From positions 1 through 43,358 of the forward strand of contig JALVIH010000003.1 in the NCBI GenBank assembly GCA_027028625.1: DNA of 43,358 nt, given 5' to 3'. How positions within the stretch are numbered: the stretch's first letter is position 1; the number at the start of each line of letters is the position of its first letter. Under the pieces are notes generated by a model. It saw only the letters and a list, made by a program, of their open reading frames with translations, ran no database searches and was not told the DNA's origin. This DNA comes from a bacterium. Lineage in GTDB: Bacteria; Patescibacteriota; Microgenomatia; JAADGY01. This document shows positions 9,850-42,046 of the stretch, in pieces. The position numbers were made by a program, and so were the translations under genes.

Positions 9850-10965
9850 GGAACTTGGAACTTGGTAATTGGAACTAGGAACTAGGTTAGAAAATAACCA
9901 ATTATCAAATTCCAAGTATCCAAACAAATTCCAAATTCGGCTTAATGAAAAAAATTAGTTGGTGATTTCGGGGCATACTTTGGGTATTTAGGAGGTTTTT
10001 ATGAAACAGAAAAAAGATGTTCTGCTTGTTATAGTAGTCACATTATGTCTAATACTACCAACTCTTTAGACGGTTCCATTGCTTATTTAAAAACTTTATT
10101 ACGCATCCATAAAGGTATGAATTTATCCTTACGACATAAAATTACAGATGAGGTTCTGAGAGAATTACCAACTAAAAAATTTCATTAAGTCCCAAATTCC
10201 AATAATCAAAACCTTCTTAGGAGTCATCCCGAACTTGTCGGGATCTAGCCGAAGGTGCAGGGAAATGGAACTAGGAACTAGGTTAAAAAAGCACTAAATC
10301 CTAAATTCGAAGCTCCAAACAAATTCTAATCTCTAAATTCTAAATCCTAAACTCCCTCGGTGGATAAATCCACCTTCGGGAGGAATAAAAATCCAGCCGA
10401 AAGCGCATAGGTGTATCCCAAACCTAAGTGTCAACGACCTTGCGCTCGTTTCCACTCGCTAGATCCTTCACTTCGCCTGGCGGCTCGTTCAGGATGACAT
10501 GGAGAAAGAGGTATACTCCCTCCCCGGGTCATTCTGAGTGTTAACGAAGAATCTAGCGAAGCGCAAAGTCTTAGCTCCCAAACTTGAGTAGACACCCCTG
10601 CGCCTTCGGCTAGATTCTTCACTACGTTCAGAATGACTCCTCTCTCAAGAGGTTTTGAATTTTGGTATTAGGATTTCGATTATTGCCTGCCCCGTAAAGA
10701 ATGAAATTTCTTTCGGGGTTTAGATATTAGAGTTTAGGAATTAGGGTTTGTTTGGAGCTTCGGATTTAGAATTTCGGATTTATTCCTATTTGTCTCCTTG
10801 GTATTTGTGATTTGTGCTTTCTTACCAAGTTCTGAGATCCAAGTTCTAAGTTCATCACACTCCCGAAGAGTGATAAATCACACTTTGGGAGAGTGATTTA
10901 TTCTGAGTTCCAAGCTCTGAGTTCTGTTTTATTTGAAAATTGATCATTGATAATTGGTTATTTTT
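9850..10965. repeat. Composite repeat mosaic A (heptamer arrays plus nested palindromes)
   Basis: GGAACT(T/A) and AAAT(C/T)C(T/G) heptamers; exact 18-bp inverted pair 9891-9908/10947-10964; 28-bp inverted pair 10296-10323/10747-10774; GTCAT..ATGAC units 10223-10498 and 10528-10637; modules shared with four other loci. Confidence 0.92.
9939..10191 (+). mobile_element. Non-autonomous IS256-family derivative (MITE, 253 bp)
   Basis: Imperfect terminal inverted repeats GGCTTAATGAAAAAAATTAGTTGGTG / rc GACTTAATGAAATTTTTTAGTTGGTA; 8-bp target duplication CCAAATTC (9931-9938, 10192-10199); remnant frame KRCSAC...NTTNSLDGSIAYLKTLLRIHKG. Confidence 0.82.
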
Positions 10966-13735
10966 GCCGAGTTCCATTTTCCGGGGGTTTCCAGCCAGGG
11001 GGTGGGAGTTGAGGATAATGACACTTCTTCCACTTTTTACCAGAACCACACCAACAAGGATCGTTACGGCCAAGCTTGTAACGATGAACTGTCTGTTGAG
11101 TTTGAATAGGGTTAACCTCTCCGGCCGCAGCTGTCTGAGGATTAAACTCAGCTAGGCTCCCTAAAGAGCTATCGGCTGGACCTTGAGTAACAATGGGCTT
11201 GTCAAGCAGGCTTTCTTGAGGAATCCGTTGAGGAACCAGATGGTAGAAGGAAAAAAGAGATTCTTTTTCTATTAATCTAATAAGTCTTTCAAATAAACGA
11301 AAGGCTTCTTGCTTGTATTCTACTAGAGGATCTTTTTGGGCAAAGCCGCGGACCATCACACCCTCTCGGAGTTGATCTAAAAGGTCGATATGATCAACCC
11401 AAAAATCATCAATAGATTTAAGAAGAGAAACTCTAGCTATGTCTTGAAGTATCTCCGGACCAAACTGTCCTTCCTTGGCTTTAATCGCCTTTTGGCCCAA
11501 CTCTTCCAACACCTCTTTTACCCCTGTTTTGGACTGGCCAGTAAGTTGGTCAACTAAAAACTGGCTCGACTCTTTATCTAAAGGAATAATTTTGGTATAT
11601 TCTTTAACTAGCTCCTTAGCTTCATCTTCAGATAACTTTTCTTCCTCAAAGTAAAACTCAATCAGATGGTCAAGATAGGTTTGGAGAAGTTTATTTATTT
11701 CCTCTACTAGTTTTTGAGGCTCCTTCTCAGCCAGGAGGAGAATTTTATCCCGCCGTTTGTAAATTATCTGGCGTTGCTTATTAATAACATCATCATAATC
11801 AACTAAGGACTTCCTAATATCAAAGTAGAAACTCTCTACCTTAGTCTGAGCCTGTTCGAGAGCCCTGGAGACTAAAGAATGCTCTAGAGGTTGGTCTTCA
11901 GGAAGATTGAACATCGTCATCAACCGAGAAATTTGATCCCCACCAAAGATGCGCATAATCTCATCTTCCAAAGAAACATAAAAGCGAGACATCCCTGGAT
12001 CGCCTTGACGGCCGGAACGGCCACGGAGCTGGTTGTCAATTCGCCGAGCCTCGTGACGTTCACTTCCTATCACAGCTAGGCCACCAGCCTCTACTACCTG
12101 CTGATGGCGCCTTAACCACTCTTGGTAAGCTCTACTTTTAAGATATTCTTCTTCTGATTGCCCCTTCTTTTTTTCTGGTAATGCTCCTCCCAGAACAATA
12201 TCAACTCCTCTCCCAGCCATATTAGTGGCTACAGTTACACTTCCGGGTTTACCAGCCTGGGCAATTATTTGGGCTTCTTGTTCGTGGTGTTTAGCGTTCA
12301 AGACTTGGTGGGGAATGCCTTTGTGCTTAAGAAGGTTAGAGAGAATTTGGTTCATCTCAATAGATCTTGTTCCCACCAAAACCGGCTGACCCTTTTGATG
12401 GAGTTCCTCCACTTCTCGAACGATAGCACTAAACTTGGCCCGAGTAGTTTTGTAAACCCGATCAGGGTAATCTCGGCGAATAACTGGTTTGTTTGTAGGA
12501 ATAACTACGGTGGTTAGATGATAAATTTTATCAAACTCTTCAGCTTCAGTTGCCGCTGTCCCAGTCATTCCAGCTAACTTCTGGTACATTCGGAAGTAGT
12601 TTTGAAGGGAGATGGTAGCCATTGTTTTAGATCTCTTCTGGATAGGCACTCCCTCCTTAGCCTCCAAGGCTTGATGTAAACCTTCCGAGAAGCGGCGGCC
12701 GGGCATTAGCCGACCGGTATGCTCATCAACAATAATTATCTGGTTATCCTTAACGATGTATTCCTTATCTTTATGGAAAAGTTCCTTAGCCTTTAGGGCC
12801 TGCTCAAGGTGATGGACCATCTGAAAGTTCTCTTGATAAAGGTTAGAAACACCAAGAGTTTTCTCCACTTTTCGCATTCCAAAGTCAGTTAAGGAAACAG
12901 TTTTTCTTTTTTCATCAATCTCATAGTCTCGGTCTTTAAGAAGCTGACTAGCTAATTGGGCAAAACGGAGATACATCGAGGTATCCTCTTCATCTGGGGC
13001 TGAGATAATAAGAGGGGTTCGAGCTTCGTCAATGAGGATAGAATCTACTTCATCAACAATACTGTAAAAATGGCCTCGCTGGACCTTCTCGGAAAAAGAG
13101 GCAACCATATTATCCCGAAGATAATCAAAACCAAATTCATTATTAGTGCCGTAAGTTACATCAGCTAAGTAGGCCTCACGGCGGGAAACTGGCCGAAGAT
13201 GAGCTAAGCGCTCCTCTAAGGCTTTAGGGTCGGTATAAGACGGATCGTAAAGGAAGGCTTGGTCGTGGACAATAACTCCCACACTTAAACCAAGAAAATC
13301 AAAGATCGGCCCCATCCAGCCGGCGTCCCGCTTAGCCAAATAGTCATTGACTGTCACTAGGTGAGCTCCCTTTCCATAAAGAGCATTAATATAAAGGGCT
13401 GGAACAGCCGAAAGCGTCTTGCCTTCACCTGTTTTCTGTTCAGCAATCTTGCCTTCAGCCAGGGCCCAGGCGGCCATTAATTGAACATCAAAATGACGCA
13501 TACCCACAGTCAGCTTGGCCGCTTGGCGGACAAGGGCAAAGGCATAAAACCAATCCTCTTGGGACAGTTTGTTGGCCAAGGCCTTATCCCGAAACCGCTC
13601 TGTCTGTTGGAGGAACTCTTCTCGCTTAAGCTTGGCCACTTCAGGTTCCAACCGATTAATCTGCTCGACGAACCTCCTAAGCCGGCCAAGTTCTCGACTG
13701 TTAAGATCAAAAAGTTTTTTGACAAAATCTAACAT
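10958..13735 (-). CDS. secA: Preprotein translocase ATPase SecA
   Basis: KTGEGKT, VDEVDSILIDEARTPLIIS, QLRGRSGRQGDPG, SEC-C GRNDPCWCGSGKKWKKCH; likely start ATG 13735, 7 nt after TATAAT (ORF track start 13744). Confidence 0.97.
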   Translation of the reverse strand: MLDFVKKLFDLNSRELGRLRRFVEQINRLEPEVAKLKREEFLQQTERFRDKALANKLSQEDWFYAFALVRQAAKLTVGMRHFDVQLMAAWALAEGKIAEQKTGEGKTLSAVPALYINALYGKGAHLVTVNDYLAKRDAGWMGPIFDFLGLSVGVIVHDQAFLYDPSYTDPKALEERLAHLRPVSRREAYLADVTYGTNNEFGFDYLRDNMVASFSEKVQRGHFYSIVDEVDSILIDEARTPLIISAPDEEDTSMYLRFAQLASQLLKDRDYEIDEKRKTVSLTDFGMRKVEKTLGVSNLYQENFQMVHHLEQALKAKELFHKDKEYIVKDNQIIIVDEHTGRLMPGRRFSEGLHQALEAKEGVPIQKRSKTMATISLQNYFRMYQKLAGMTGTAATEAEEFDKIYHLTTVVIPTNKPVIRRDYPDRVYKTTRAKFSAIVREVEELHQKGQPVLVGTRSIEMNQILSNLLKHKGIPHQVLNAKHHEQEAQIIAQAGKPGSVTVATNMAGRGVDIVLGGALPEKKKGQSEEEYLKSRAYQEWLRRHQQVVEAGGLAVIGSERHEARRIDNQLRGRSGRQGDPGMSRFYVSLEDEIMRIFGGDQISRLMTMFNLPEDQPLEHSLVSRALEQAQTKVESFYFDIRKSLVDYDDVINKQRQIIYKRRDKILLLAEKEPQKLVEEINKLLQTYLDHLIEFYFEEEKLSEDEAKELVKEYTKIIPLDKESSQFLVDQLTGQSKTGVKEVLEELGQKAIKAKEGQFGPEILQDIARVSLLKSIDDFWVDHIDLLDQLREGVMVRGFAQKDPLVEYKQEAFRLFERLIRLIEKESLFSFYHLVPQRIPQESLLDKPIVTQGPADSSLGSLAEFNPQTAAAGEVNPIQTQQTVHRYKLGRNDPCWCGSGKKWKKCHYPQLPPPGWKPPENGTRQK

Positions 13736-13910
13736 ACTCATCATTATAAACTATTTAGAACTCAGAAATTAGAATGTAGGGGCGTTAATTTAGTTTGAAG
13801 CGCTATCAGCAAGTTTACCTCCAGAAATCCAAATATAACTTTTTTCTCGAATAGATGTGGGGTAGGGAAATTAAGGTTTGGAATTAAAATGAAGGAGTAG
13901 TGCCGGCCAA

Positions 13911-13939
13911 TTGAACAATGTTATAGGAGGCGGTATACT
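13911..13939 (+). promoter_or_regulatory. Sigma-70 promoter (leaderless) of the ASCH-domain gene
   Basis: TTGAAC-17nt-TATACT, 6 nt before ATG 13946. Confidence 0.7.
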
Positions 13940-13945
13940 TCAGGT

Positions 13946-14947
13946 ATGGCTTTCGAAAAATTACTTCAAGGTATGCAAAAGTTTTTTGGTCTTGATCTCG
14001 AGGGAGAAAGTTGGCGGGACCATGTCATTTCCGCAAGAGAACAAACAAATTGGCGCAAATTGGTAGGAATCCAAGAAAGGGCTCTCCAAGAATTGTATGG
14101 TCAGCAGGGTTGGAAAACTTTCCAGGGGGTAGCTGAACAGTTCCGTCTTTGGGATTTAGAAAACCCTAAGGGGCTTTATCTTATTTTGGATATGGTCAGG
14201 AAAACATCATTATGGATGTTAGCTTCTTTTAAAGACTATTTTAGGTTGGAATCGTATGCTTGTGCTCTAGACCTTGTCTTGGATACCCAAATAGTAAAGC
14301 CAGCCGACGAGGTGTTACCTCTTATTTTGGGAGCCGGCCCAGTTGGCCCTTTGAGTGGGAGGGAAACTTTGGAAAGGTTAGGGGATGCTTTTCAGCCGCT
14401 TTTAAATCACCTTTGGGCTAAAGAAGAAAAATGGCAAGCGTTTCGAGAGCAGGCGCAAGCCAAACGGCCAGCTGAATCAAAGACCATAGAGATGAAACTT
14501 TACCCTTTCTACTTTGCCATGATTCAGAATGGCAGTAAGACCTTTGAGGGACGGGCGTTTAAGCCTGGAGATTGGCGTTATGCCATGCTGAGGGCGGGGG
14601 ACAAGATTCGCTTTCGGGTGGACCCCGAAGCTCCGGAAGAATATCGAGAGGACACGGTGGGGCGTAATGATAGTATGGTCTATCGGGTAGAAAAGGTTGT
14701 TTTTGGCCCGCTAGTGAGTTCGGTTTTTCGCCGGACTGGTTTAGGCATGTGCCCGGCCCAACTCTTGACCGGCGGGCGTTTTTTTCAGCCTGATGTTGCT
14801 GCGGGTGCCTATGAATTCTCGCTGGCGGAAGTTTTGGAACAAATTAACCGCTACTATCGGATTCCCGGCTACCTTGACCGCATTGCCGAGCATGGGTTTG
14901 TGGGGGTCGAGGTGAAAAAGGAGCTAGGAGCTGGGTTGAAGAAATAA
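13946..14947 (+). CDS. Protein with an unknown N-terminal domain and a C-terminal ASCH/PUA-like domain
   Basis: EMKLYPFYFAMIQNGSKTFEGR...LRAGDKIRF matches the ASCH GxKxxExR motif; visibly more G/C-rich than its neighbours. Confidence 0.75.
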   Translation: MAFEKLLQGMQKFFGLDLEGESWRDHVISAREQTNWRKLVGIQERALQELYGQQGWKTFQGVAEQFRLWDLENPKGLYLILDMVRKTSLWMLASFKDYFRLESYACALDLVLDTQIVKPADEVLPLILGAGPVGPLSGRETLERLGDAFQPLLNHLWAKEEKWQAFREQAQAKRPAESKTIEMKLYPFYFAMIQNGSKTFEGRAFKPGDWRYAMLRAGDKIRFRVDPEAPEEYREDTVGRNDSMVYRVEKVVFGPLVSSVFRRTGLGMCPAQLLTGGRFFQPDVAAGAYEFSLAEVLEQINRYYRIPGYLDRIAEHGFVGVEVKKELGAGLKK

Positions 14948-15420
14948 CCAATTATCAAATTCCAAGGATACAACAGGAATAAATCCTAAATCCGAAATCC
15001 TAAGTTCCAAACAAATCCTAAATTCTAATCTCTAATATCCAAACCCCGAAAGAAATTTCATTCTTTACGGGACAGGTAAGCCTCAATAACCAATGATCAA
15101 AACCCTCTTTCTCGAGTCATCCCGAGCAAGCTGTTTCCTCCTCTCTGGGTCATCCTGAGGAGCTGGGGCGACGAAGGATCTAGCTGATAGGCGCATGGGT
15201 TCTACTCAAGTTTGGGAGCTAAGAATTTGCGCTTCGCTAGATTCTTCGCGGGACTCAGAATGACTCGTTAATTAACTAAGTTCCAAGTTCTAAGTTCTTA
15301 GTTCCAGATAAACTGAGTTCTAAGTTCATCACACTCCCGAAGAGTGATAAAACACATTTCGTCGGGAGAGTGATTTATTCTGAGTTCCGAGTTCCGAGCT
15401 CTGAGTTCTAATTACCGAAC
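14920..15420. repeat. Composite repeat mosaic B
   Basis: GGAGCTAGGAGCTGGG, AAATAACCAATTATCAAATTCCAAG, AAATCCT array, CCCCGAAAGAAATTTCATTCTTTACGGG, GTCAT unit 15149-15264, CATCACACTCCCGAAGAGTGA module 15327-15377, AGTTC(C/T)G array. Confidence 0.92.
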
Positions 15421-15482
15421 TCCAAAAACAGTTTGTCACTTTTCTTTCTAGTTGTTAAACTAAAAAATGGGAAAGGTTATCT

Positions 15483-18407: not shown

Positions 18408-18409
18408 TC

Positions 18410-18733: not shown

Positions 18734-18737
18734 AAGT

Positions 18738-21074
18738 TTACAACCTAGCCCTTTGGGCTATCTCACGCTCAACTTCGTAGCGATCGCGGCCATACTTCAA
18801 CTGCGAAAGCTGGCGAATCATCTCGGCTACCTTTGGGTTCCTCATTCTTTCTTGAACACTCATATCCTTGGTTAGGTCTAAAGAAAAGGCTGGCAGAGGC
18901 TCATTGTTATAAATCGTCTTAATGTAAGCGTGGTACTTCTCAATGTTTAGGAGGTCGGTCTGACTAAAAACCGGAGCAAACTCGTTCTGAAGATAGTTAG
19001 CGTCAGTTACTCCCACCCGGAAGGAGATAAGGGTGCCAACATTACCAAAGACAGCGTTCTTAACCTCATCCTCCATCTGGCTAATAAACTGGTTGGCTAC
19101 CGTTAGGTTAAGGTGATACTTTCTGGCTTCGGAAAGAATTTGAGCAAAATCAGGAGTGGCAAAGTTCTGGAACTCATCTACATAAAGATAAAAATCCCGC
19201 CGCTGTTCCTCAGGCACGTCTTGGCGGCTCATGGCGGCCATTAAGATGCGGGGGACTAAAACCAAGCCTAAAAAGCTCGAGTTCTCTTCACCAATCTTCC
19301 CTTTTGCCAAACTAATTAAGAGGATTTTTCCTTCATCCATAACCTTCCGAAAATCAAAAGCGCTCTTCGACTGGCCGATTATGTTCCGCATCATTGGATT
19401 AGTGACAAAGCGGCCAAATTTAGAGACTATATAATCAAGAACTTCCGATTTGTGGAAGTCAGAAGTTTTAGCTATTTGATCAGTCCAATAACGCCGAACC
19501 ATAGGGTTCTTTACCTTAGGGAGAAGAGACCGCATATAATTATCGTCGGTTAATACCCGGACCACCTCAACAAAAGAGGCTCCCGGCTCAGCAGTAACAG
19601 TCAAGATGGCGTTGCGGACAGCATGCTCAAAACGGGGACCAACAATCCCTGTTTTGTGGGGATCAAAAAGTTTGTACATCATATTAATGATGGCTGAGGC
19701 AATAAATTGTTTCTGGTCCTCCGTCTTATATTCCAGAAGGTTGAGCCCCATCGGCCGGTCAAGGTTAGAGGGGTCAAAGAGAATTACATCCTCGGCTCGG
19801 TTAGGAGGGATTAACTCTAAGAGAATATCAATAGTGTCATGAGGGTCAATGAAACAAATACCTTTACCGGCTTTGATGTCTTGAAGCATCATATCAAGAA
19901 GGAATTGGGATTTCCCAGCCCCTGTTTTCCCAATAATATACATATGCCGACTCCGGTCCTTGTCTTGAATATAGACAGGTCGGCGGATACCACGGAAGTC
20001 ATTGTAACCCAAGAAGAGACCGCTGGTTGGAATTTGGGCTGGAGCTGGGGCCCTTTTGGCCATCAACCAGTGGATAAAAGGGGTTTCCACTGTTTTGTTA
20101 GGGAAGTGAAAGATGCTGGCCAACTCGTCGGTTGAGAGGATGGAGGTTCGACCAAAAAGAGGCAGGTAACGATAAATAACATCAAGCATAAACATTTTCT
20201 TGAACCAAATCTTCTTACTAACCAAGGCATTGTAGGCTGACTGGAACTGAGAAAAGGCGGCCACAATTTCTTTAAGGTGGGCTTCGGCTCGCTCCTTTTG
20301 GGGGGAAACCACCACCAAACGAAGGTCAGTGACAAAACCAGGCTTGGAACATTTATTCTCAATGGCGTCATAAGTTTTGGGGTCGATATTGTAATTTGCT
20401 TTTTTGGGGTCGGACTCTTCCTTTTTCTTATGGGCTATCCAACTCTTTCCTTGTTTTTGCCAGCGGTTAGAGGCAGGGGTAAGAACTATCTGGAAAATAG
20501 CCCCTTCCCCCTCCATCATCTTAGCCATAGCCGAAGTAATGGGGGCAATGCTGTCTGTGGCCATTTCTTTATAGGTCTTTAGCGGCCAGAAGGGTGCATT
20601 TTTTGTTTTTAGAGCAGTAAAAGCCACATAACCGTCTTTGGTAAAGATATTGTGGTCCTCAACAACCTTGATAAGAGCTTCTGGATAAGCCCCATAAATT
20701 TGCTTCTCTACTAACTGAAAGTCGTCTTCAGGGACGCTGATGTAGAAGCCAATGTTTTCTTTTGTGGCCACTAACTCGAGGGTTAGATGGCGGGGATGTT
20801 TAAAAAAACGGCTCCACCAATGAGAATGATAAAGGGAGGCAAAAGAAGAGAACATTTGTTCAGCTGCATCAACTTTTATTTCGTTGTCTTTAGGCACTAG
20901 GACTTCAAATGTAACCATCGAAAGAGACCTCTCTTCCCGACGGCGGTACTTTAACCATAAAAAGAACAACCAGATTAAAGCCAATAGAATACCAAAGAAA
21001 AAAAGAAAGGCAAAAAGGCTAACTGTAAAAGTAGTTAGTCTAAGAATAAGGGTGTTTAAGAACTCCTGGAACAT
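18738..21074 (-). CDS. VirB4/TraG-VirD4-like (HerA/FtsK superfamily) ATPase of the CPR type
   Basis: N-terminal TM, HMYIIGKTGAGKS (Walker A), YLYVDEFQNF (Walker B), LSEARKYHLNLTVANQ. Confidence 0.88.
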   Translation of the reverse strand: MFQEFLNTLILRLTTFTVSLFAFLFFFGILLALIWLFFLWLKYRRREERSLSMVTFEVLVPKDNEIKVDAAEQMFSSFASLYHSHWWSRFFKHPRHLTLELVATKENIGFYISVPEDDFQLVEKQIYGAYPEALIKVVEDHNIFTKDGYVAFTALKTKNAPFWPLKTYKEMATDSIAPITSAMAKMMEGEGAIFQIVLTPASNRWQKQGKSWIAHKKKEESDPKKANYNIDPKTYDAIENKCSKPGFVTDLRLVVVSPQKERAEAHLKEIVAAFSQFQSAYNALVSKKIWFKKMFMLDVIYRYLPLFGRTSILSTDELASIFHFPNKTVETPFIHWLMAKRAPAPAQIPTSGLFLGYNDFRGIRRPVYIQDKDRSRHMYIIGKTGAGKSQFLLDMMLQDIKAGKGICFIDPHDTIDILLELIPPNRAEDVILFDPSNLDRPMGLNLLEYKTEDQKQFIASAIINMMYKLFDPHKTGIVGPRFEHAVRNAILTVTAEPGASFVEVVRVLTDDNYMRSLLPKVKNPMVRRYWTDQIAKTSDFHKSEVLDYIVSKFGRFVTNPMMRNIIGQSKSAFDFRKVMDEGKILLISLAKGKIGEENSSFLGLVLVPRILMAAMSRQDVPEEQRRDFYLYVDEFQNFATPDFAQILSEARKYHLNLTVANQFISQMEDEVKNAVFGNVGTLISFRVGVTDANYLQNEFAPVFSQTDLLNIEKYHAYIKTIYNNEPLPAFSLDLTKDMSVQERMRNPKVAEMIRQLSQLKYGRDRYEVEREIAQRARL

Positions 21075-21112
21075 ATCTCATTTTAAATTATCAATTCTCA
21101 ATTAGCAAACAA
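21072..21112 (-). promoter_or_regulatory. Leaderless promoter, copy 1 of a 41-bp duplication
   Basis: Minus strand TTGCTA-17nt-TAAAAT-GAGAT-ATG; 38/41 identical to 31185-31225. Confidence 0.75.
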
Positions 21113-21170
21113 CGCCCATTTACAATTTTGGTCGGAGTGGGTATTATATTCTTGTTGACATTTTAGGCTC

Positions 21171-21294
21171 GGAAATCAAAGGAATTGGGTGAAAATCCCA
21201 AGCTGTGCCGCAACCGTGAGAGGAGTTCTCCTCGAGTCGGGAACTTTGATTTCTAAGTTAGTTACCGGAGGCCCTCGAGCAAGGGTTGGTCCGG
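21171..21294 (+). ncRNA. Cobalamin riboswitch-like RNA (compact class-II architecture)
   Basis: Closing stem GAAATCAAAG/CTTTGATTTC; GGAA; TTGGG-TGAAAAT-CCCAA T-loop hairpin; GCTGTGCCGCAACCGT; GAGGAG/CTCCTC stem; GAGTCGG; downstream CCC-TCGAGCAA-GGG loop complementary to L5 TGCCG; upstream promoter TTTACA-17nt-TATTAT (21119-21147). Confidence 0.75.
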
Positions 21295-21332
21295 GTAGAG
21301 TTTCTCTCCCCGATCCTTGCTGAGGGGAAAAG

Positions 21333-22409
21333 ATAAGTAATTTAGAACGACACCAATTACTGCAAATCACTAAGGGGGAGGGAGCTTATCTCCTCTGGGG
21401 GGAAACAAAAGAACAAAACCTCCCTCTGTTTATCCTAAATGTCTTGGAGGCTCTTAATGAGGCTATTGGCGCTCCTACTTACCGAACCGAGTACTATCTA
21501 GGAGAAGAAGGCCATCTTATTCATTTACAAACCGGCCTAGACATCCAAGAATCAATGGCCTTGGCTATCCAAAAAGCCCAGATGCTTCTAAACACACAAA
21601 AAGAAGGGGGTCTCTTGGCTGAACAGTTTTCTCGGCTTGTTCTAGAAAAACACGGCTTGGAAAAAGTGGTTCAACTCCTGGAGGAAGGACATCGGCACAT
21701 TGTTTGGATTTCCCCTCCGGGTTTGGGCCTAAACAGTGGGGAGGCTCGGGTAAATATCTTTTCAAAAACTGGAGATAGGGTTTTAAATTTTGCTTTTGTA
21801 GCCACCCCCCAACTCCAGGCTCTCCAAGAGCTTGTCTCCTCTTTAGGGGGACCAGAAGAACTCGATCATTTTATTGATAATAATGGTTGGGTAGCCTCAT
21901 TTCTTCAGAATCCCTTCCCCACTAATCTAGACCCGCTCCAAGTAAAAGAAAGGGTTGTGGAAATGAATCAAACAGCCAACTTTACTCCCCCGGGTTTTGG
22001 AATAGATATTTACCAACTCTACCGCAAATACCCCCATATATTTGGTGTCCTTGAGGAGGAAATACAAAAGTTCTACTTCTCTTCTAGGCATTTTCCCGGC
22101 GAAGAGAGATATTCTAAAGAACTTGAGTTTCTTGGCTACCTTCTCAATTTCTATGTCAAGCCTTTATTAAGGTATGAGCTACAACAACAAGGAGTAAGTG
22201 AGGAGAAATTCCTCTTAGAATATAATGCCTTGATAAATCGAGTTAGTAGCTGTGGTCAAGGGTTGGGTTCTTTAATAAACCCAATTAATCCTCTGTCACA
22301 AATGAACCTCCTGGCCTTCAATTTTCTTTCCGAGGAAGAAAGGGGGGGATGCCCCCACTGTTCTTCTCCAAGAAGGGAAAAACCCCGTCCAAAACAATGG
22401 ACACCGTAG
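21333..22409 (+). CDS. Hypothetical protein with a C-terminal Cys motif, downstream of the riboswitch
   Basis: Frame open from 21324; GAGGGG SD then ATA at 21333 giving (M)SNLERH (ORF track start TTG 21444); SSCG...CPHC near the C-terminus. Confidence 0.65.
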   Translation: MSNLERHQLLQITKGEGAYLLWGETKEQNLPLFILNVLEALNEAIGAPTYRTEYYLGEEGHLIHLQTGLDIQESMALAIQKAQMLLNTQKEGGLLAEQFSRLVLEKHGLEKVVQLLEEGHRHIVWISPPGLGLNSGEARVNIFSKTGDRVLNFAFVATPQLQALQELVSSLGGPEELDHFIDNNGWVASFLQNPFPTNLDPLQVKERVVEMNQTANFTPPGFGIDIYQLYRKYPHIFGVLEEEIQKFYFSSRHFPGEERYSKELEFLGYLLNFYVKPLLRYELQQQGVSEEKFLLEYNALINRVSSCGQGLGSLINPINPLSQMNLLAFNFLSEEERGGCPHCSSPRREKPRPKQWTP

Positions 22410-29452: not shown

Positions 29453-29492
29453 AAAACACACCCAAATAATTAGATGTAAATAATAAACCACG

Positions 29493-29524: not shown

Positions 29525-29528
29525 TTTA

Positions 29529-31187
29529 TTAAAGGGAGACCTTTTTGGCGAGAGGAAGAAACGATGTGTTTATAGTAGTTTTAAAAGGAGTTGGAAGAGG
29601 GGCGAAGACAACCTTTCTTTTGGTAGTTATATGGTCCAGCCCCAAAAGGGAAAGTGCTCGTTGGCTAAAAGAGGGGGTAAATGGCAAGAGAAGGGTGGCT
29701 AGGTTGGTGGCCAGGTAAGATGCGGTAGCCAAGGAGTCTTTGGCGGCGGCCGGAGAGGTTTTAATTTGTCGCCAAGGCTCCTCTTGGTTTAAGTAAAGAT
29801 TAGCTTTATTTGAGAGCTCAATGACCTCCTTGAAGGCTGACCCTAAAGAACAGGACTCCATCTTTTGATTGATTGAGGCGAACGTTTTGTGGATATGTTC
29901 GGCGATGGTCGGGTCGACATTCTCGACCAAAAGTTCGCCTCCAAAGAATTTTTTCTGGAAAAGGGCTACTCGTTGGAAGAAGTTGGCTACTTTGTCTACC
30001 AAAACTCCATTGATTGTTCGGACAAACTCTGTCCAGTACCAAGAAGATTCGTGGTTTTCTGGCAGGATAGAGAAGAGGTAAAAGCGAATCATATCAGGGT
30101 GATATTTCCTTCCCACCTCAAGAGAGTTAATAATAACCCCCCGACTTTTGGAGAACTTTTTTCCCTCTAGAGTGAGAAATTTATTTACACACTCTTGGTA
30201 AGGCAGGGTGTAGTTGTTTTTTTGGCCGATTAATTGGCCAGGCCAGAAGATGGTATGAAAAGCAAGGTTGTCTTGGCCCATAAAGTAATAATGCCGCGAG
30301 TTAGGGTTATGCCAAAATTCAGAAAAAAGACCGTTTTTTTCTTTCTTTTGGGCATATTCTTGAACTGCCGAGACATATCCAATAACAGCGTCAAACCAGA
30401 CATAAAAGCGTTTTTTATCCATATTCTTCAGTTGCCAAGAAGGGGGAATTTTGTTTTTTGGGAAAGGAATTCCCCACTCTAAATCTCGGCTTATGGGGCG
30501 GGGTTTTAATCCTTCTTTTAACCAACCCATTGTTTCTTGCCAGACCCAGGGTCGCCAATGTTTTGATTTAAGAACGAAGTCTTTTATTTCTTTTTCTAAT
30601 TTGGGATAGTCTAAGTAGTAGTGTTCGCTTTTTTTAAGGATTACTTTTTGGCCATCGAGTTTGCTGTGAGGATTAATGAGTTGGCCAGAATCTAGCACCC
30701 GACCGCAAACCTCGCACTGGTCGGCCCGCTGATTGGGGCTATGGCAATATGGGCATTCCCCCTCGACATAGCGGTCGGGAAGGAAGCGTTTTTGGCTAGG
30801 AGAATAATATTGGTAGTCCTCCTTTTTAAAAATATAGCCATTCTTAAGTAGTTTAAGAAAAAATTCTTGGACAATCTTTTGGTGATTTGGGGTTTGGGTG
30901 GTGGTAAAGATGTCGTAACTCAAATCGTAAAGTTTGATTAGTTCTTTAATTTGAGGTAGGTAAGTATCAATTAATTGTTGAGGAGAAAGATGGCGCTTTT
31001 CTGCCTCCACAGTTATAGGGGTTCCATGGCAGTCGGCTCCGGAGACCATCAGGACACGATGCCCTTTTAGTCTGGCCCAGCGAGCAAAGGCGTCGGCTGG
31101 GAGGAGGTAGCCGGCCAGATGACCAACATGAATTTCTCCGTTGACATAAGGCCAGGCAACCGCAACTAAGATATTCTGGGAAGGCAT
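29529..31187 (-). CDS. metG: Methionine--tRNA ligase without the C-terminal tRNA-binding domain
   Basis: AWPYVNGEIHVGH, GADCHGTPI, CPYC/CEVC knuckles, YVWFDA, KFSKS. Confidence 0.96.
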   Translation of the reverse strand: MPSQNILVAVAWPYVNGEIHVGHLAGYLLPADAFARWARLKGHRVLMVSGADCHGTPITVEAEKRHLSPQQLIDTYLPQIKELIKLYDLSYDIFTTTQTPNHQKIVQEFFLKLLKNGYIFKKEDYQYYSPSQKRFLPDRYVEGECPYCHSPNQRADQCEVCGRVLDSGQLINPHSKLDGQKVILKKSEHYYLDYPKLEKEIKDFVLKSKHWRPWVWQETMGWLKEGLKPRPISRDLEWGIPFPKNKIPPSWQLKNMDKKRFYVWFDAVIGYVSAVQEYAQKKEKNGLFSEFWHNPNSRHYYFMGQDNLAFHTIFWPGQLIGQKNNYTLPYQECVNKFLTLEGKKFSKSRGVIINSLEVGRKYHPDMIRFYLFSILPENHESSWYWTEFVRTINGVLVDKVANFFQRVALFQKKFFGGELLVENVDPTIAEHIHKTFASINQKMESCSLGSAFKEVIELSNKANLYLNQEEPWRQIKTSPAAAKDSLATASYLATNLATLLLPFTPSFSQRALSLLGLDHITTKRKVVFAPLPTPFKTTINTSFLPLAKKVSL

Positions 31188-31225
31188 ATCTCATTTTAAA
31201 TTATCGAATCTCGATTAGCAAACAA
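31185..31225 (-). promoter_or_regulatory. Leaderless promoter, copy 2 of the 41-bp duplication
   Basis: TTGCTA-17nt-TAAAAT-GAGAT-ATG(metG). Confidence 0.75.
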
Positions 31226-31228
31226 AGT

Positions 31229-31324
31229 TAGAACTAGGGGATTAATTTTTAACTGCCTGCCGGCAGGTAGGTTTAGGATTTATTCCTGTTTGGATTGCTT
31301 GGGGTTTTGGAAATTGGTTATTTA
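31229..31324. repeat. Short repeat mosaic C
   Basis: TAGAACTAGG, CTGCCTGCCGGCAGGTAGG palindrome, TTTAGGATTTATTCCTGTT (reverse complement of the 14972 module), AATTGGTTATTT. Confidence 0.75.
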
Positions 31325-31332
31325 ATAAAGAA

Positions 31333-31376: not shown

Positions 31377-31507
31377 CCTTATTATAACAGATAAAGTCTT
31401 CCTTCTCTGTAGCACCCGCGTTAGATAATATTTTTTATTTCCCCAAAAAACAGATTTATGTACGAGCCGGGCTCGTAATTAATAATCCTCATAAGGTATC
31501 ATAAGGT

Positions 31508-33298: not shown

Positions 33299-34356
33299 AA
33301 AAAATAAACCTCATTTTTATCAGCCTAATCTTCCTTTTTTTATTGGTTCCAAAGTCCAGCCTGGCCAGTTATGGCGATGTTTGTAATCCGGATAACGCTG
33401 GTATTAAATATGATGATACTCAAGAAGGAAGGGTGGTAATTAATCAAGTGGATCCAAAAATAAAGGTAATAAACGTAAAACTTAAATGCGATGGTCAGAC
33501 TGTAAAAGTTATAGACAAACGATGTGCTGGTTCCTGCCAAATTGCAATTCAAACCGCTGGTTTAAAAGGTAATTGTAATATTTATACCCAGACAAAAACT
33601 CTAACGAGTGGTGGTGGTGGTATTAAAACCCGCAAATGTTCTATCCCAGTTCAAACAATAGTTCTTCAAGGAAAGTTGACCCCTGATTTTGATAAGTGTG
33701 GTGTTGTTGCCAGTCTTAACGCCCCAATTAATAATTATTCTCAATATCATGTGGTGGCTAGGTGTGAAGGGGGAGGGGTATATAATCTTAATGAGATTGA
33801 TGCTTCTTACGCTTCTGAGCATACGTATATTTTTAGCCTGCCACAATACCTAATCACTAATAATAATGGTTGCCCTCTTAGTGGTAAATGTTCTTTTTTC
33901 CTCCTCGATCCTCATGGAAATACTGTGGCTACGGCTGATGAACTTATCAAAGAAGCCGAGGCTCAAGACGAAAAAGCCCACCCCAATGATCCTTGCAGTC
34001 TTTTGAGTGGTAATGACCGGGTGGCCTGCCGCCAGTGTATGGGAACAGAGGACAACCCAACCAACAACGTCTGGACAGTTTTTGGCTGTATTAATATGGG
34101 CTCGTCAGGAAGCATCTTTAATTTTTTCTTTAACCTCCTTTCTTATATGGTTGGCGGCATCGCCGCTCTCCTTCTTATCTATGCCTCTTTCCTTTATATG
34201 ACCTCTGGAGGTGATAGCGAAAAAATTAAGCGGGCCCAGACCTTAATTACAGCCATTGTTTCTGGTATTCTCTTTATAATTTTTTCTATAATGATTATGC
34301 GTTTTGTAGGAATAACTCTTTTTGATTTACCAACTTTAAAAACAACTGGACAATAA
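33295..34356 (+). CDS. Cys-rich extracellular protein with a C-terminal VirB2/TrbC-like pilin domain
   Basis: Signal peptide, 14 Cys, WTVFGCI, LLIYASFLYMTSGGDSEKIKRAQTLITAIVSG. Confidence 0.8.
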   Translation: MKKINLIFISLIFLFLLVPKSSLASYGDVCNPDNAGIKYDDTQEGRVVINQVDPKIKVINVKLKCDGQTVKVIDKRCAGSCQIAIQTAGLKGNCNIYTQTKTLTSGGGGIKTRKCSIPVQTIVLQGKLTPDFDKCGVVASLNAPINNYSQYHVVARCEGGGVYNLNEIDASYASEHTYIFSLPQYLITNNNGCPLSGKCSFFLLDPHGNTVATADELIKEAEAQDEKAHPNDPCSLLSGNDRVACRQCMGTEDNPTNNVWTVFGCINMGSSGSIFNFFFNLLSYMVGGIAALLLIYASFLYMTSGGDSEKIKRAQTLITAIVSGILFIIFSIMIMRFVGITLFDLPTLKTTGQ

Positions 34357-34365
34357 GGAGGCAAG

Positions 34366-38314: not shown

Positions 38315-38904
38315 AGAAACTGTTTAAATGAATAAAACCAAGAGAAAGTAAGAAAAAGGATTAGCCAACTTAAAAGTGGTCTTTGGTTGTTAATGATTCT
38401 CAGCCAGAGATAAAAAATGAGGGTTTGAAGAAGAAAAAGAAAGATGGTGAAACTTAAAAAAGAGAAGTCTGTTAGGGCTAGATTAATCCCTCGAAGGCGC
38501 ACCCAGACTGAACGGAGCAGCAACCACAAGGCAGGTAATGGGAGAAAATAGATTAAACTAAAAATTTGTTTCCATTCCCTAGGATAAAGAAGGGCAATAA
38601 GGCTTACTCCAGCTGTTAGGAGGAGAATTATCCAGGCCAGCTCTTGCCAGATTAGTAGCCGCCGCCACAAACCAATTGGTTGAGGATGGATGATTAGTTC
38701 GGCTAACCAAAGAAGAAGGAGAGTAAATCCTATAATTAATCCACCCCCAACCAAGGTTGTTCTTTGTAAAAGGCGGTTAATAGTTAAAAAAGGATGGAGC
38801 CAGAAGCCGGCCAGGACTGAGGTAACTTTTAGGCTGTTTGCCTCAATTTTTTGGAGAAGAGTGTTCCCATCCAGAACCAGTCTTTTTTTAATTGTTAGTG
38901 GCAT
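38299..38904 (-). CDS. Multi-pass membrane hypothetical protein in the upper mevalonate operon
   Basis: About five hydrophobic segments; overlaps the HMGR start. Confidence 0.7.
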   Translation of the reverse strand: MPLTIKKRLVLDGNTLLQKIEANSLKVTSVLAGFWLHPFLTINRLLQRTTLVGGGLIIGFTLLLLWLAELIIHPQPIGLWRRLLIWQELAWIILLLTAGVSLIALLYPREWKQIFSLIYFLPLPALWLLLRSVWVRLRGINLALTDFSFLSFTIFLFLLQTLIFYLWLRIINNQRPLLSWLILFLTFSWFYSFKQFLCLWF

Positions 38905-39068
38905 AACGGTTGGCGGAAATAAGCCTGCCAGTTAAGTTGGAGGAATTGGTTAAGAACTAGGAAAATAAAACTTAAGATAAAGGAAATGAGGAGGAGTTTT
39001 AATCCGCCATTAAGGCCGGCCACCTCAGTTAACCACCAGCTTTCTAGTGTTTTGTCTAGTTTGTCCAT
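38895..39068 (-). CDS. Small single-TM protein (57 aa), first gene of the upper mevalonate operon; not in the ORF track
   Basis: MDKLDKTLESWWLTEVAGLNGGLKLLLISFILSFIFLVLNQFLQLNWQAYFRQPLCH*; TATATT 5 nt upstream; overlaps the next ORF by 10 nt. Confidence 0.6.
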   Translation of the reverse strand: MDKLDKTLESWWLTEVAGLNGGLKLLLISFILSFIFLVLNQFLQLNWQAYFRQPLCH

Positions 39069-39118
39069 CCATAAATATAGTCCGGTTGAGAACCCAAAAT
39101 CATTCGCTGTTTGGGACC

Positions 39119-39570
39119 GGAACTCAGTTTATCTGGAACTAAGAACTCAGCAGAAATTCCAATTATCAAATTCCAAGTATCCAAACAAACTCCAAATCCC
39201 AATAACCAATGATCAAGCCATTGTTTTTCGAGTCATTCTGAGCCCCGCGAAGAATCTAGCCGAAGGCGCATGGAATGGGGCTAGGAACTAGGTTGGAAAA
39301 CAATTAATAACTGTAGTGAGAGTTTAGAAGAAACCTGAGTGCCAGCGACTTTGCGCTCGCTCCGCTCGCTAGATCCTTCGTCGCCATGGCTCCTCAGGAT
39401 GACTCCTCGGGCGGTTCTTTACTTTACGAACTTTATGAACTTTATGGACTTTCTAACTTTACAAACTAAGTTCTGAGTTCTAGGTTCATCACACTCCCGA
39501 AGAGTGATAAAACACACTTCGGGAGAGTGATTTATTCCGAGTTCTAAGTTCCAAACTCTAAGTTCTGATT
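39119..39570. repeat. Composite repeat mosaic E
   Basis: GAACTCAGTTTATCTGGAACTAAGAACT (exact reverse complement of 15293-15320), AATTATCAAATTCCAAGTATCCAAACAAA, GTCAT unit 39232-39403, 9-mer tandem ACTTTA(C/T)G(A/G) 39421-39462, CATCACACTCCCG module 39487-39534. Confidence 0.92.
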
Positions 39571-39597
39571 ACCCGATTGTAGTATACTTAACTTAGG

Positions 39598-39921
39598 ATG
39601 GAAGTAAGAAAGGTGGTAAAGTATATTACTATAGGGTTAGGCAGTTTAATTGGGATAGCTATTTTGGTTTTAACAGTAGTTAATGTTCGTCAGTATCAGC
39701 AACGGACGACATCAGCCCACCCCATTGATTGTTACCTTAATTGGTGTGAGGGGAGAGTGGTTAAAGAAGGTAAAGGTTATGTCATTGAGTTCTCCCAACC
39801 CCTTTCTAGAAGATATCCCCTTAAAGAATTTTCTTATGATATTTCCTCTCTTGAAGGAAAGGTGATTAAAGTTAAGGGGGTAGTAAAAGACAATTATTTT
39901 TATCTGACATCAGTAAAATAA
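39598..39921 (+). CDS. Membrane-anchored hypothetical protein
   Basis: N-terminal TM followed by a small beta-rich domain (LEGKVIKVKGVV). Confidence 0.7.
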   Translation: MEVRKVVKYITIGLGSLIGIAILVLTVVNVRQYQQRTTSAHPIDCYLNWCEGRVVKEGKGYVIEFSQPLSRRYPLKEFSYDISSLEGKVIKVKGVVKDNYFYLTSVK

Positions 39922-39925
39922 CTCG

Positions 39926-40354
39926 ATGAGTAGTTACCTGATTGTTTCTGATGGTGGTTCTCGTGGTAATCCAGGACCGGCTGCTTCAGCTTTTGTAGTT
40001 TTTCAAGATGGCAAACAAAATTTTATGGCCGGTTTTTATTGGGGGAGAAAGACTAATAATCAAGCTGAATATCTGGCCCTAATTATGGCTCTAGAGTGGT
40101 TAAAGAAAGAAGATCTTTCTCTTGAAGATGAGATTACTTTTCGTTCTGACTCGGAGCTGATGATAAAACAGCTAAAAGGGGAGTATAAAGTTAAATCTCC
40201 TCAAATAAGGATTCTTTTTGAAAAAAGCCGACAGCTTCTTCAGAGTCTTTCCGAAAGAGGTGTTTCTTTTAGGTTGGAACATAAACTCCGTCAACATACT
40301 CATTCGGCTGACTCTCTTTTAAATAAGATTTTGGATATGGTTTCCCAAAAATGA
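39926..40354 (+). CDS. rnhA: Ribonuclease HI family protein
   Basis: SDGGSRGNPGPA, TNNQAEY, SDSELMIKQLKGEYKVK, ADSLLN. Confidence 0.92.
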   Translation: MSSYLIVSDGGSRGNPGPAASAFVVFQDGKQNFMAGFYWGRKTNNQAEYLALIMALEWLKKEDLSLEDEITFRSDSELMIKQLKGEYKVKSPQIRILFEKSRQLLQSLSERGVSFRLEHKLRQHTHSADSLLNKILDMVSQK

Positions 40355-41076
40355 AGCCAAACTTTCCCAAACACATTGCTATTATTATGGATGGTAACCG
40401 CCGCTGGGCTAGGCGTCATGGCCTGAGTGTTTTGTCGGGACATAAACAAGCAGCGGAAAAAACTATCGAACCCATCGTTGACCGCTTGGCTAAGATTGGT
40501 ATTCCTTATGTTACTCTCTGGGCTTTTTCTACTGAAAATTGGAGGCGCGACCCCCAAGAAGTTAAGGGGTTAATTGAGATCTTCCGCCAAGGAATTAAAA
40601 ACCAAGGCGACCACTTTCTCCAGCAAGGTTATCGTTTACGGGTTATAGGGGACTATAAAGCCTTTCCACAAGATATAGTTAAGCTAATAGATTATTATCA
40701 ACAAGCCTCGGCTAAAAATAAACGGTTGACGGTTATTTTTGCTCTGAATTATGGTGGTCGAGATGAAATTCTTCGAGCCATAGGCAGGATTTATCGAGAG
40801 AATCCTCATTTTTTTACAAAGATAGAGAAGGCAGATTGGCAAGAAAGAAAAAAGTTGGCTCTTCAGTTGGCCGAGTATTTAGACACTCGAGGACTGCCCG
40901 ATCCAGATATGATTATCCGCACCGGTGGGGAAAAACGCCTTTCAGGCTACCTTCTCTGGCAGATGGAGTATGCCGAGTTGTTTTTTACCCCTACTCTCTG
41001 GCCTGATTTTGGGCCTGAAGAGCTGGATAAGCTTATTCAGGAGTTTCTCCATCGTCAGCGCCGTTTTGGTAAGTAA
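40351..41076 (+). CDS. uppS: Undecaprenyl/polyprenyl diphosphate synthase
   Basis: HIAIIMDGNRRWA, AFSTENWRR, LNYGGRDEI, IRTGGEKRLSGYLLWQ. Confidence 0.96.
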   Translation: MKPNFPKHIAIIMDGNRRWARRHGLSVLSGHKQAAEKTIEPIVDRLAKIGIPYVTLWAFSTENWRRDPQEVKGLIEIFRQGIKNQGDHFLQQGYRLRVIGDYKAFPQDIVKLIDYYQQASAKNKRLTVIFALNYGGRDEILRAIGRIYRENPHFFTKIEKADWQERKKLALQLAEYLDTRGLPDPDMIIRTGGEKRLSGYLLWQMEYAELFFTPTLWPDFGPEELDKLIQEFLHRQRRFGK

Positions 41077-41108
41077 TTTTTTATCTTATCTCTAATATAT
41101 AATGAGCT

Positions 41109-41654
41109 ATGAAGATTCTCTTTGTTGGTTTGGGAAATCCAGAGGAGAAGTATCTCTTAACTCGGCATAATGCTGGTCGCCGTTGGGTTGAGTTTTGGGG
41201 AGATAGGTTACAAGGAAAATGGCAGAAGAGAGAGAAACTTTTTAGTGTTGTTTTGGAGTCCAATGAAACTATCTTTTCTTACCCCCTTCTTTATATGAAT
41301 GAATCCGGTCGGGCAGTCAAGAAATTGTTAGATTGGTACCATCTACCCCCAACCCAATTATGTTTGGTCCACGATGAGTTGGATCTGCCTCTAGGAAGTT
41401 GGAAACTCAGTTTCGGCAAAGGCTCTCCCCTCCATAAAGGAGTTGCTTCAGTGGAGGAAAATCTTGGGGGAGGGAGTTTTTGGCGACTGCGTTTAGGTAT
41501 AGATAATCGGCCATCTAATCAGCGGATGCCGGGAATAAAATATGTTCTCCAAAAGTTTTCACCAAGAGAAGATGATATTTTCTCCAAGCTCGTTCACACT
41601 TTAGCCCCAACAGAGATTATTAAGGTGATGACCAGTAAGGCTAATAAATCCTAA
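41109..41654 (+). CDS. pth: Peptidyl-tRNA hydrolase
   Basis: VGLGNP..Y..TRHNAG, YMNESG, VHDELDLP, RLRLGI. Confidence 0.95.
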   Translation: MKILFVGLGNPEEKYLLTRHNAGRRWVEFWGDRLQGKWQKREKLFSVVLESNETIFSYPLLYMNESGRAVKKLLDWYHLPPTQLCLVHDELDLPLGSWKLSFGKGSPLHKGVASVEENLGGGSFWRLRLGIDNRPSNQRMPGIKYVLQKFSPREDDIFSKLVHTLAPTEIIKVMTSKANKS

Positions 41655-42046
41655 ATCCTAAACTCTAATATCTAAACCCCGAAAGAAATTTCATTCTTTA
41701 CGGGGCAGGCAATAATCAAAATCCTAACGATTTAAATTCAAAACACTTGGAACATTGGTTATTGGAATTTGGTACTTGGAGTTTAGTATTGTGTCATCCT
41801 GAGGAGCTGGGGCGACGAAGGATCTAGCGAAGCGCAAAGAACTTAGCTCCCAAACTTGAGTAGACAACCATGCGCCTATCGGCTAGATCCCGACAAGTCG
41901 GGATGACACAAAGGACAAAGTTTTGGATTTAGATCATTAGGATTTCGAATTTGTTTAGGACCTGCCTGCCGGCAGGCAGGTTTGGGATTTAGAATTTAGT
42001 GCTTTCTTACCGAGTTCCAAGTTCCGATTACCTAGCTCCTAGTTCC
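41643..42046. repeat. Composite repeat mosaic F
   Basis: 41656-41717 is an exact 62-bp reverse complement of 10678-10739; GTCAT unit 41793-41907; perfect palindrome CCTGCCTGCCGGCAGGCAGG 41961-41980; heptamer arrays at both ends. Confidence 0.92.

Follow-up and report, generated by a model that had tools for sequence, protein, structure and literature searches.

Nested mosaics of short hairpin repeats and heptamer arrays in the genome of a Microgenomatia bacterium

The window described here is a stretch of 43,358 nucleotides (nt), contig C3 (JALVIH010000003.1, positions 1 to 43,358) of assembly GCA_027028625.1, which derives from a bacterium of the class Microgenomatia within the candidate phyla radiation (CPR) with a full genome of ∼0.8 Mb. 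Five intergenic tracts of this window, named A, B, C, E, and F, reuse a common set of short modules, as the original prediction from the sequence had claimed and as a repeat search in the window recovers. With a probability of about 0.55, these tracts are local samples of genome-wide mosaics that resemble bacterial interspersed mosaic elements (BIMEs) and consist of selfish hairpin repeats. Their core is an inverted pair of hairpins of the Ssn-related motif (SRM) type, their arms are arrays of heptamers, and copying would depend on a nuclease acting in trans. The source assembly (G000) consists of 54 contigs with 724,557 bp and is 90.84% complete and 1.98% contaminated; its relatives of the same class show genome sizes of 0.7 to 1.8 Mb. 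The whole genome was compared with that of a sister species of the same genus (G001), the genes of which are 80 to 90% identical, and a Shapirobacteria genome of the same class (G184) provides the link to an enzyme. The tracts are located between ordinary genes, with mutM and secA on both sides of tract A, metG and a gene for a SpoIID-domain protein next to tract C, and pth and the gene for a tRNA-binding protein enclosing tract F.

The modules also occur far outside the window. When the complete assembly is compared with itself by BLAST, 152 repeat tracts appear in the source genome, comprising 41,606 of 724,557 nt (5.7%), of which only 1,214 nt lie inside open reading frames (ORFs) of at least 120 amino acids (aa). 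The window stretches present at least three times in this genome are 9850-9938, 10070-10982, 14920-15417, 31242-31284, 39120-39573, and 41643-42047. The repeated stretches total 2,402 nt, in agreement with the previous estimate of ∼2.5 kb. Used as BLAST queries, the five window tracts each have between 19 and 429 hits, distributed over 13 to 43 of the 54 contigs, and Tandem Repeats Finder (TRF) reports 794 arrays, 272 of them with a period of 7 and none with a period above 32. Repeats are also found at 28 of the 108 contig ends. The pairings listed in the original prediction are exact in number: positions 9891-9908 match 10947-10964 at 18 of 18 letters and 10296-10323 match 10747-10774 at 26 of 28, both as reverse complements, and the long copies at 10678-10739 and 41656-41717 (62 of 62) and at 15293-15320 and 39120-39147 (28 of 28) are inverted, not direct. 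Likewise, the description of several palindromic noncoding families that are nested in one another and have no gene of their own in the window is borne out. Tracts E and F show no match to 72,556 plasmid and 50,697 phage records in a search with the low-complexity filter switched on.

The central module is a hairpin that corresponds to the GTCAT..ATGAC palindromic unit, module 4 of the original prediction. It occurs in 140 copies on 39 contigs and in length classes of 26, 29, 30, 36, 39, and 41 nt, with a constant 5-letter tag at the 5′ end and a 6-letter tail at the 3′ end around a basal stem of 5 bp. All five pairs of this stem are Watson-Crick pairs in 129 of the 140 copies, and the third pair covaries, with 72 C-G pairs, 59 T-A pairs, and 9 mismatches. 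A scan that relies on structure only finds 137 such hairpins in the source genome and 277 in the sister species, compared to 2 to 8 in first-order Markov shuffles. Most copies (100 of 140) make up 50 plus/minus pairs of neighbors. Forty-five of these pairs are compact units with a center of 48 to 219 nt, mostly 48 to 62 nt; the remaining five span 1.4 to 3.3 kb and are not units. The common center of 48 to 62 nt shows conserved edges and a variable middle of ∼30 nt, and the centers of five compact units are filled by other modules. The hairpin length classes at the two ends of a pair combine freely.

Chenal et al. (2025) describe hairpin repeats with a defined orientation, known as NTS in Neisseria and as "Ssn-related motifs" elsewhere, which flank genes encoding GIY-YIG proteins with a single domain and ∼94 aa (PMC11893778). 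The Ssn proteins are described there as binding the hairpin and cleaving the adjacent single-stranded DNA (PMC11893778). The tag (positions 41793-41797) and the tail (41822-41827) of the unit in tract F agree letter by letter with the published NTS consensus, and those of module 4 are compatible with the six symbols at either end of the published SRM search pattern (PMC11893778), while the base preceding the tag does not always fit this pattern. In the Shapirobacteria genome, three hairpins upstream and one downstream enclose an intact ORF of 96 aa (L125:1228-1515) that consists of a single GIY-YIG domain. The right end of this unit matches the unit ends of the source and sister genomes over 18 to 35 nt, extending past the hairpin; its left end shows no match. 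A homologue of the encoded protein from Blackburnbacteria carries one hairpin of the module 4 type directly downstream of its gene. Further relatives with 42 to 58% identity occur in Nitrospirota, Bacteroidota, Elusimicrobia, Blackburnbacteria, and others, with related tagged hairpins beside the gene; in a strict structural scan of 20 GIY-YIG loci, only the two CPR records score. Neither NCBIfam nor PDB gives the Shapirobacteria protein a specific name. Of 301 genomes sampled from the class, 11 match a 121-nt query that spans the unit of tract F (41790-41910); in genomes of other genera, the match is limited to one terminal hairpin, at ∼90% identity and in several families.

On sequence grounds, tag, tail, hairpin, and gene link place module 4 with the SRM/NTS repeats, a kind already described. 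Because the tag and tail share the NTS letters and the same hairpins flank a GIY-YIG gene in the Shapirobacteria genome, the hairpin pairs of the source genome are read as gene-less derivatives, that is, as an SRM-gene-SRM unit of a small GIY-YIG nuclease from which the gene would have been deleted. Such units would be comparable to miniature inverted-repeat transposable elements (MITEs) or to REPINs, inverted pairs of repetitive extragenic palindromes (REPs). The earlier designation of the whole as an undescribed system was thus too strong for module 4, whose family was published in 2025. Literature searches yielded no description for this lineage of the arms made of heptamers, of the doublet, or of the nested arrangement.

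The heptamer arrays surrounding the hairpin pairs fall into three main classes, with the units S (e.g., 15278-15284), A (14981-14987), and W (21086-21092). The doublet consists of two inverted hairpin halves with a 46-nt core and is always located inside an S-type array; it occurs at 46 distinct places in the source genome, to which 76 BLAST hits covering 80% or more of the query were reduced. A perfect-palindrome module is present in 26 copies (47 hits before the strands were collapsed) and a 37-nt hairpin module in 6 copies, and an array of 9-mers is a further module. The lengths and unit sequences of the arrays vary between copies. Annotation of every tract of at least 250 nt in the source genome shows a recurring order of an S arm, often an A or W arm, the hairpin pair, an A or W arm, and an S arm. 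S arrays are minus oriented in 44 of 46 cases to the left of the hairpin group and plus oriented in 49 of 51 cases to the right, and the strand of the doublet equals that of the adjacent S array in 51 of 54. Where a tract contains two or more S arrays, the orientations of the outermost two are minus/plus in 22 tracts, plus/plus in 10 tracts, minus/minus in 9 tracts, and plus/minus in 1 tract. The previously claimed closing of layers as inverted pairs needs one correction, in that the outer layers of tract A are interleaved and not strictly nested; for the arms, the inversion rule is nevertheless strong genome-wide. Folding of 20 tracts as single-stranded DNA yields a median z score of -6.95 relative to dinucleotide shuffles. 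Twelve of these tracts form at least 10 pairs spanning more than 60% of the tract; four, including tract B, form none.

Comparison with the sister species shows how the mosaics change. Both flanks are syntenic for 29 of the 152 tracts, and nearly all of the 29 orthologous spacers are also filled in the sister species but with different modules. Hairpins are found in both genomes at 15 of these sites, in the source genome only at 3, in the sister species only at 6, and in neither at 5. The corresponding numbers are 0, 6, and 1 for the doublet (both, source only, sister only) and 1, 8, and 6 for the palindrome module. The two genomes contain 46 and 2 doublets, respectively, next to the 137 and 277 hairpins given above. 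Doublet copies show a mean pairwise difference of ∼2 of 46 nt, and their consensus is identical in both species. Individual sites illustrate the differences: site t50 is a plain S array in the sister species and an S array with a doublet inside and extra heptamers in the source genome, and site t73 contains a single 20-nt hairpin in the former and a doublet in the latter. A query with the doublet yields matches in 2 of 301 genomes of the class, both in the source genus and none in any other genus, and the doublet appears to be a genus-specific module. With 46 copies against 2 and no match in the other genera searched, the families have therefore moved after speciation. The comparison, which provides no clean junctions, shows turnover with family-specific bursts since the two species separated, and the claim of recent activity is in line with the turned-over module content.

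A multistep process may account for these features. The repeats would spread on single-stranded DNA, where a nuclease supplied in trans would nick beside a folded hairpin. Repair synthesis or recombination would then copy modules between tracts, with the heptamer arrays providing the homology. Copying via the arrays would keep the orientation of a module relative to its arm, allow modules to assort, and build up nested palindromes. A bolder and rather doubtful version regards the heptamer arrays themselves as portable homology arms of a transposase-free copy-and-paste process. Here, an Ssn-type or other nuclease would nick single-stranded DNA beside a folded hairpin, repair would copy a module from another array, and nested palindromes would arise stepwise. 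If true, such a process would also solve the long-standing puzzle of the mosaics of heptamers and small repeats that heterocystous cyanobacteria contain, and it would be common among CPR genomes.

Several observations weigh against the proposed in-trans copying of SRM-type pairs. GIY-YIG nucleases hydrolyze DNA without joining it, and a host copying step must therefore be assumed. No intact Ssn-type gene is found in the 90.8% complete source assembly. The sole GIY-YIG match (L015:1501-1623, equivalent to C44:9621-9743) is a 31-codon remnant with a premature stop beside a tRNA-Ile gene, not flanked by SRM hairpins; its orthologue in the sister species is intact, with 83 aa. A second small GIY-YIG gene of that species, encoding 86 aa, lies just after a tRNA-Gln gene, at a place where the source genome has a tract (C35:16303-16835). 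Both intact genes (L047:3010-3270 and L052:235-486) follow tRNA genes (Gln and Ile), are followed by a partial copy of a tRNA 3′ half, and are flanked by these partial copies, not by module 4 hairpins. None of 12 other small GIY-YIG loci examined in genomes of the class shows a hairpin directly at the gene. Small GIY-YIG genes number 3 to 8 in four genomes of the class with a hairpin match, 2 in the sister species, and 1 to 3 in five of five genomes without a match; since all five hairpin-negative genomes have such genes, gene presence does not track the repeat. The heptamers, the doublet, and the palindrome module show no tie to any enzyme. The stem symbols of the full SRM search pattern, checked by hand, are not fitted by the two commonest hairpin classes of 26 and 29 nt. 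Finally, the 29 syntenic sites contain no clean empty site, and no target-site duplication is found among them. The enzyme acting in trans may be lost, unassembled, or a tRNA-associated GIY-YIG protein.

The arrangement of GIY-YIG genes and tRNA copies in the sister species looks as it would after integration into tRNA genes. The number of small GIY-YIG genes was also considered as a correlate of the hairpin match and was set aside as too weak, the genomes not being independent. Long, UvrC-like GIY-YIG proteins have no match in the source genome, and 7 of 10 other class genomes searched show 1 or 2 open frames of 429 to 635 aa with the domain; the three genomes without such a frame are the sister species, G158, and G004.

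Among the enzymes suggested in the original prediction, the stand-alone GIY-YIG nuclease fits module 4 in its tag, its tail, and the gene-flanking hairpins of the Shapirobacteria genome, while the HUH or REP-associated tyrosine transposase (RAYT) and the Avd-like proteins are not supported. The Y1_Tnp family (PF01797) has 0 matches in the source genome, compared to matches in 6 of 14 genomes in a control search, and no reverse transcriptase (RVT_1), which the reading as a diversity-generating retroelement with Avd would involve, is matched in this genome. The same applies to the IS110 DEDD and rve domains. One weak hit to TnpB was rejected, as it is confined to the zinc ribbon at the C terminus of a protein of 355 aa, which, judged from its sequence, is probably a radical-SAM enzyme. 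As no transposase is found, the mechanism of spread is inferred. A classical transposase (of the RAYT or IS200-type HUH, IS110, or DDE kind) could be encoded in the unassembled ∼9% of the genome or on a separate replicon. Inverted hairpin doublets are the architecture of REPINs (PMC3116915), and in an incomplete assembly with repeats at its contig ends, multicopy genes may be missing. Nevertheless, this source of the repeats is decidedly improbable, as the domain searches are negative, almost no repeated DNA lies inside long ORFs, and the hairpin tag is that of a GIY-YIG-associated family. Dispensing with a dedicated enzyme altogether is an unlikely solution too. Slippage would make the arrays, template switching and recombination or gene conversion would spread the palindromes, and the hairpin pairs would be fossils of an element with a lost nuclease. 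The lack of any transposase, reverse transcriptase, or intact Ssn-type gene in the searches of the source genome is in favor of this, as are array lengths and unit sequences that differ from copy to copy, and the state of site t73 is expected from a slip between the internal direct repeats of the doublet or from the reverse duplication. However, 46 doublets differing by ∼4%, beside genes that are 10 to 20% diverged from a sister species with 2 doublets, imply efficient recent copying, and drift alone would not preserve a terminal hairpin of the tract F unit at ∼90% identity in other families of the class.

A host function, in which the repeats act as terminators or insulators, RNA-stability elements, or processing signals and are conserved by selection instead of by mobility, has little probability. 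It would be consistent with the strong folds, with the conservation of hairpins across families, and with the position of tRNA genes, for which a neighboring tract at a distance of up to 100 nt is about twice as frequent as for ORFs: 15 of 46 upstream and 13 of 46 downstream, compared to 111 and 91 of 629 for ORFs, with odds ratios of ∼2.3 and p values of ∼0.02 over the whole source genome. Against a host function, module content at orthologous spacers is not conserved between the congeners, the copy numbers of a single family differ up to 23-fold between them, and tracts occur alike in divergent (25 of 87), tandem (45 of 400), and convergent (15 of 88) spacers. That the mosaics are assembly chimeras of short repeats is very improbable. 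Assembled contigs (Logan) of 7 runs from 3 studies, 3 of the runs labeled hydrothermal vent metagenome, contain at least part of the window, and the contigs of the four best-covering runs, from 2 studies, were used for a check. Each of the four runs supplies contigs that extend into tracts E and F from either side, and inner pieces are matched by short contigs without difference, but no independent contig spans either tract whole. In every one of these runs, the contigs end within the two tracts, and the joints observed at such places stem from other repeat copies. Tract C is the only tract spanned whole by independent contigs, also in a strain that is ∼3% different. The summed contig depth in tract bins is ∼4 to 40 times the flank depth, and module families and grammar of this kind are seen again at 152 sites and in the independently assembled sister species. 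This contig evidence argues against a chimera, while the inner order of the long tracts rests on the original assembly.

The BIME-like mosaics with an SRM-type core bear on several questions. Streamlined genomes with little mobile DNA are the usual picture of CPR bacteria. In the present genome of ∼0.8 Mb, nested and presumably selfish repeats make up at least 5.7%, and they also break the assembly. Such tracts would explain the fragmentation of metagenome-assembled genomes of this kind and mark rearrangement points. The link of module 4 to Ssn would extend a newly described pairing of repeat and enzyme to the CPR and gives a testable candidate for the spread of the repeats. Furthermore, inverted heptamer arms with embedded palindromes represent a tractable case for how REP/BIME-like mosaics are built. 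The coordinates of the window features are listed in the table.

Repeat tracts of the window and the modules they contain
Feature	Position	Strand	Description
Tract A, mutM-secA spacer	9850-10982		Oppositely oriented S heptamer arrays at the two ends; A-type arrays, two hairpin pairs, one doublet, one 37-nt hairpin module, 259-nt repeat
259-nt repeat, tract A	9933-10191	+	Ribosome-binding site and 22-codon hydrophobic ORF (10001-10069)
Inverted SRM-type hairpin pair, tract A	10223-10498		Center of 208 nt of other modules (heptamers, small hairpin at 10352-10384)
Inverted SRM-type hairpin pair, tract A	10528-10637		51-nt center; MITE/REPIN-like unit
Doublet, tract A	10850-10901	+	Two inverted hairpin halves inside S-type heptamer array
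Tract B	14920-15417		In order: A arrays, 37-nt hairpin module, hairpin pair, S array, doublet, S array
Inverted SRM-type hairpin pair, tract B	15149-15264		51-nt center; orientation opposite to tract F unit
Doublet, tract B	15324-15378	+	Copy with 3-nt insertion
Tract C core	31242-31284		Perfect-palindrome module (module 6 of the original prediction), then A-type heptamers
Tract E	39120-39573		Heptamers, hairpin pair (107-nt filled center), 9-mer array, S array, doublet, S array
Inverted SRM-type hairpin pair, tract E	39232-39403		Inserted center; same insert at C51:19962-20125 and C54:14987-15169
Doublet reference copy, tract E	39484-39535	+	46-nt core at 39487-39532
Tract F, pth to tRNA-binding-protein spacer	41643-42047		A arrays, 37-nt hairpin module (41676-41712), intact hairpin pair, palindrome module (41960-41982), S array
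Intact MITE/REPIN-like unit, tract F	41793-41907		36-nt and 26-nt SRM-type hairpins, inverted, around 53-nt center

The 259-nt repeat of tract A occurs at four places in the source genome and at none in the sister species; three of these places are at contig ends (C52:48954-49211, C36:1-122, and C30:30832-30953). Its ribosome-binding site is strong, and the putative 22-codon peptide has a basic N terminus, features reminiscent of type I toxin loci. The adjacency of mutM and secA (9770-10958) is absent from contig C28 of the sister species, where secA lies ∼4.3 kb away, inverted, on the same contig; a rearrangement breakpoint therefore coincides with tract A. The spacer orthologous to tract E (C30 of the sister species, L017:3556-4049, compared to window positions 39118-39577) contains a tRNA-Pro(TGG) gene in the sister species and none in the source genome, and the window is devoid of any tRNA gene. 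A 41-nt stretch that includes W-type heptamers is found at 21072-21112 and, with 93% identity, at 31185-31225, spanning the start codon and leader of two minus-strand genes, a 778-aa ORF and metG. The sole Rfam match in the window at the gathering score lies outside the tracts and is an AdoCbl (cobalamin) riboswitch at 21154-21297 on the plus strand (69.4 bits), upstream of the ORF at 21444-22409, which is notable for a genome of ∼0.8 Mb. In the ∼3% different strain from run X2, positions 33657-33955 (297 nt) are exchanged for 294 other letters within an otherwise collinear contig of 23.9 kb.

Literature searches yielded no paper on such repeats in CPR, and several known systems show partial likeness. 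TIGR arrays are described with a period of ∼36 nt, two alternating repeats of 8 to 12 nt, 9-nt spacers, and an adjacent Tas gene (PMC12045711). They were rejected as a match for the tracts of the source genome, in which a period of 7 dominates, none exceeds 32, and the repeats are dispersed over 152 sites; no search for a Tas or Nop gene was made. The compact hairpin pairs share with bacterial MITEs such as Nezha (PMC3184786) a noncoding sequence of ∼110 to 135 bp, inverted repeats at the ends, and a probable relation of these ends to those of a unit with a gene. They differ in that no target-site duplication is established here and the putative parent of the units encodes a nuclease, not a transposase.

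REPs, REPINs, and BIMEs form mosaics with other motifs, and their inverted doublets of short palindromes fold into one long hairpin (PMC3116915). They depend on a single-copy enzyme in trans, the RAYT transposase; PMC2817692 and PMC3333891 are further papers on this group. The source genome shows the defining arrangement of a REPIN, two inverted units folding into one hairpin, in its 45 compact pairs with strong folds, whereas a RAYT (Y1 HUH) gene flanked by REPs is not found in this genome. Its tag belongs to the CGTC-type superfamily, and heptamer arms are not a BIME feature. REPs with a CGTC tag, including the Rickettsia repeats, are likewise short stem-loops with an unpaired conserved end tag that often form inverted dimers; the survey of Di Nocera et al. 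(2013) covers five phyla, with CPR not included (PMC3733652). By this older classification, module 4 would be grouped with the CGTC-tagged REPs. In the source genome, the base before the tag is often not C, in contrast to these repeats.

The heptamer repeats and small dispersed repeats (SDR) of Nostoc are reportedly the subject of a study by Elhai et al. from 2008. As in the present mosaics, the stems of hairpins are built from tandem arrays of 7-nt units, into which small palindromes are inserted. Read on the other strand, the A unit corresponds to the Class I heptanucleotide motif of trnL P6b, and a minority of S arrays (with a consensus unit counted 12 times by TRF) fit Class II (PMC4476775). 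An origin of the window in Nostoc, which the heptamers had suggested, was rejected in view of a 90.8% complete assembly of only 0.72 Mb with relatives of small genome size. Nostoc belongs to another phylum and has another habitat label; the likeness is one of style, homology not being shown.

The closest relationship is that to the SRM/NTS repeats and Ssn. The hairpins of the source genome differ from these in being mostly inverted, gene-less pairs with a variable center and no intact cognate gene, in having shorter stems with inserted sub-hairpins in six length classes, and in their location inside heptamer-armed nested mosaics. CPR has no occurrences in the main text of PMC11893778, whose supplementary genome lists may include it. 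The hairpins of 26 to 41 nt correspond to the inverted repeats of 20 to 50 nt that define SRM/NTS hairpins. Common to both are an extragenic hairpin that has an orientation and carries identical letters in its 5′ tag and 3′ tail, copy numbers in the hundreds, frequently in symbionts with small genomes, and, in a genome of the same class, hairpins flanking a small GIY-YIG gene of ∼95 aa (PMC11893778).

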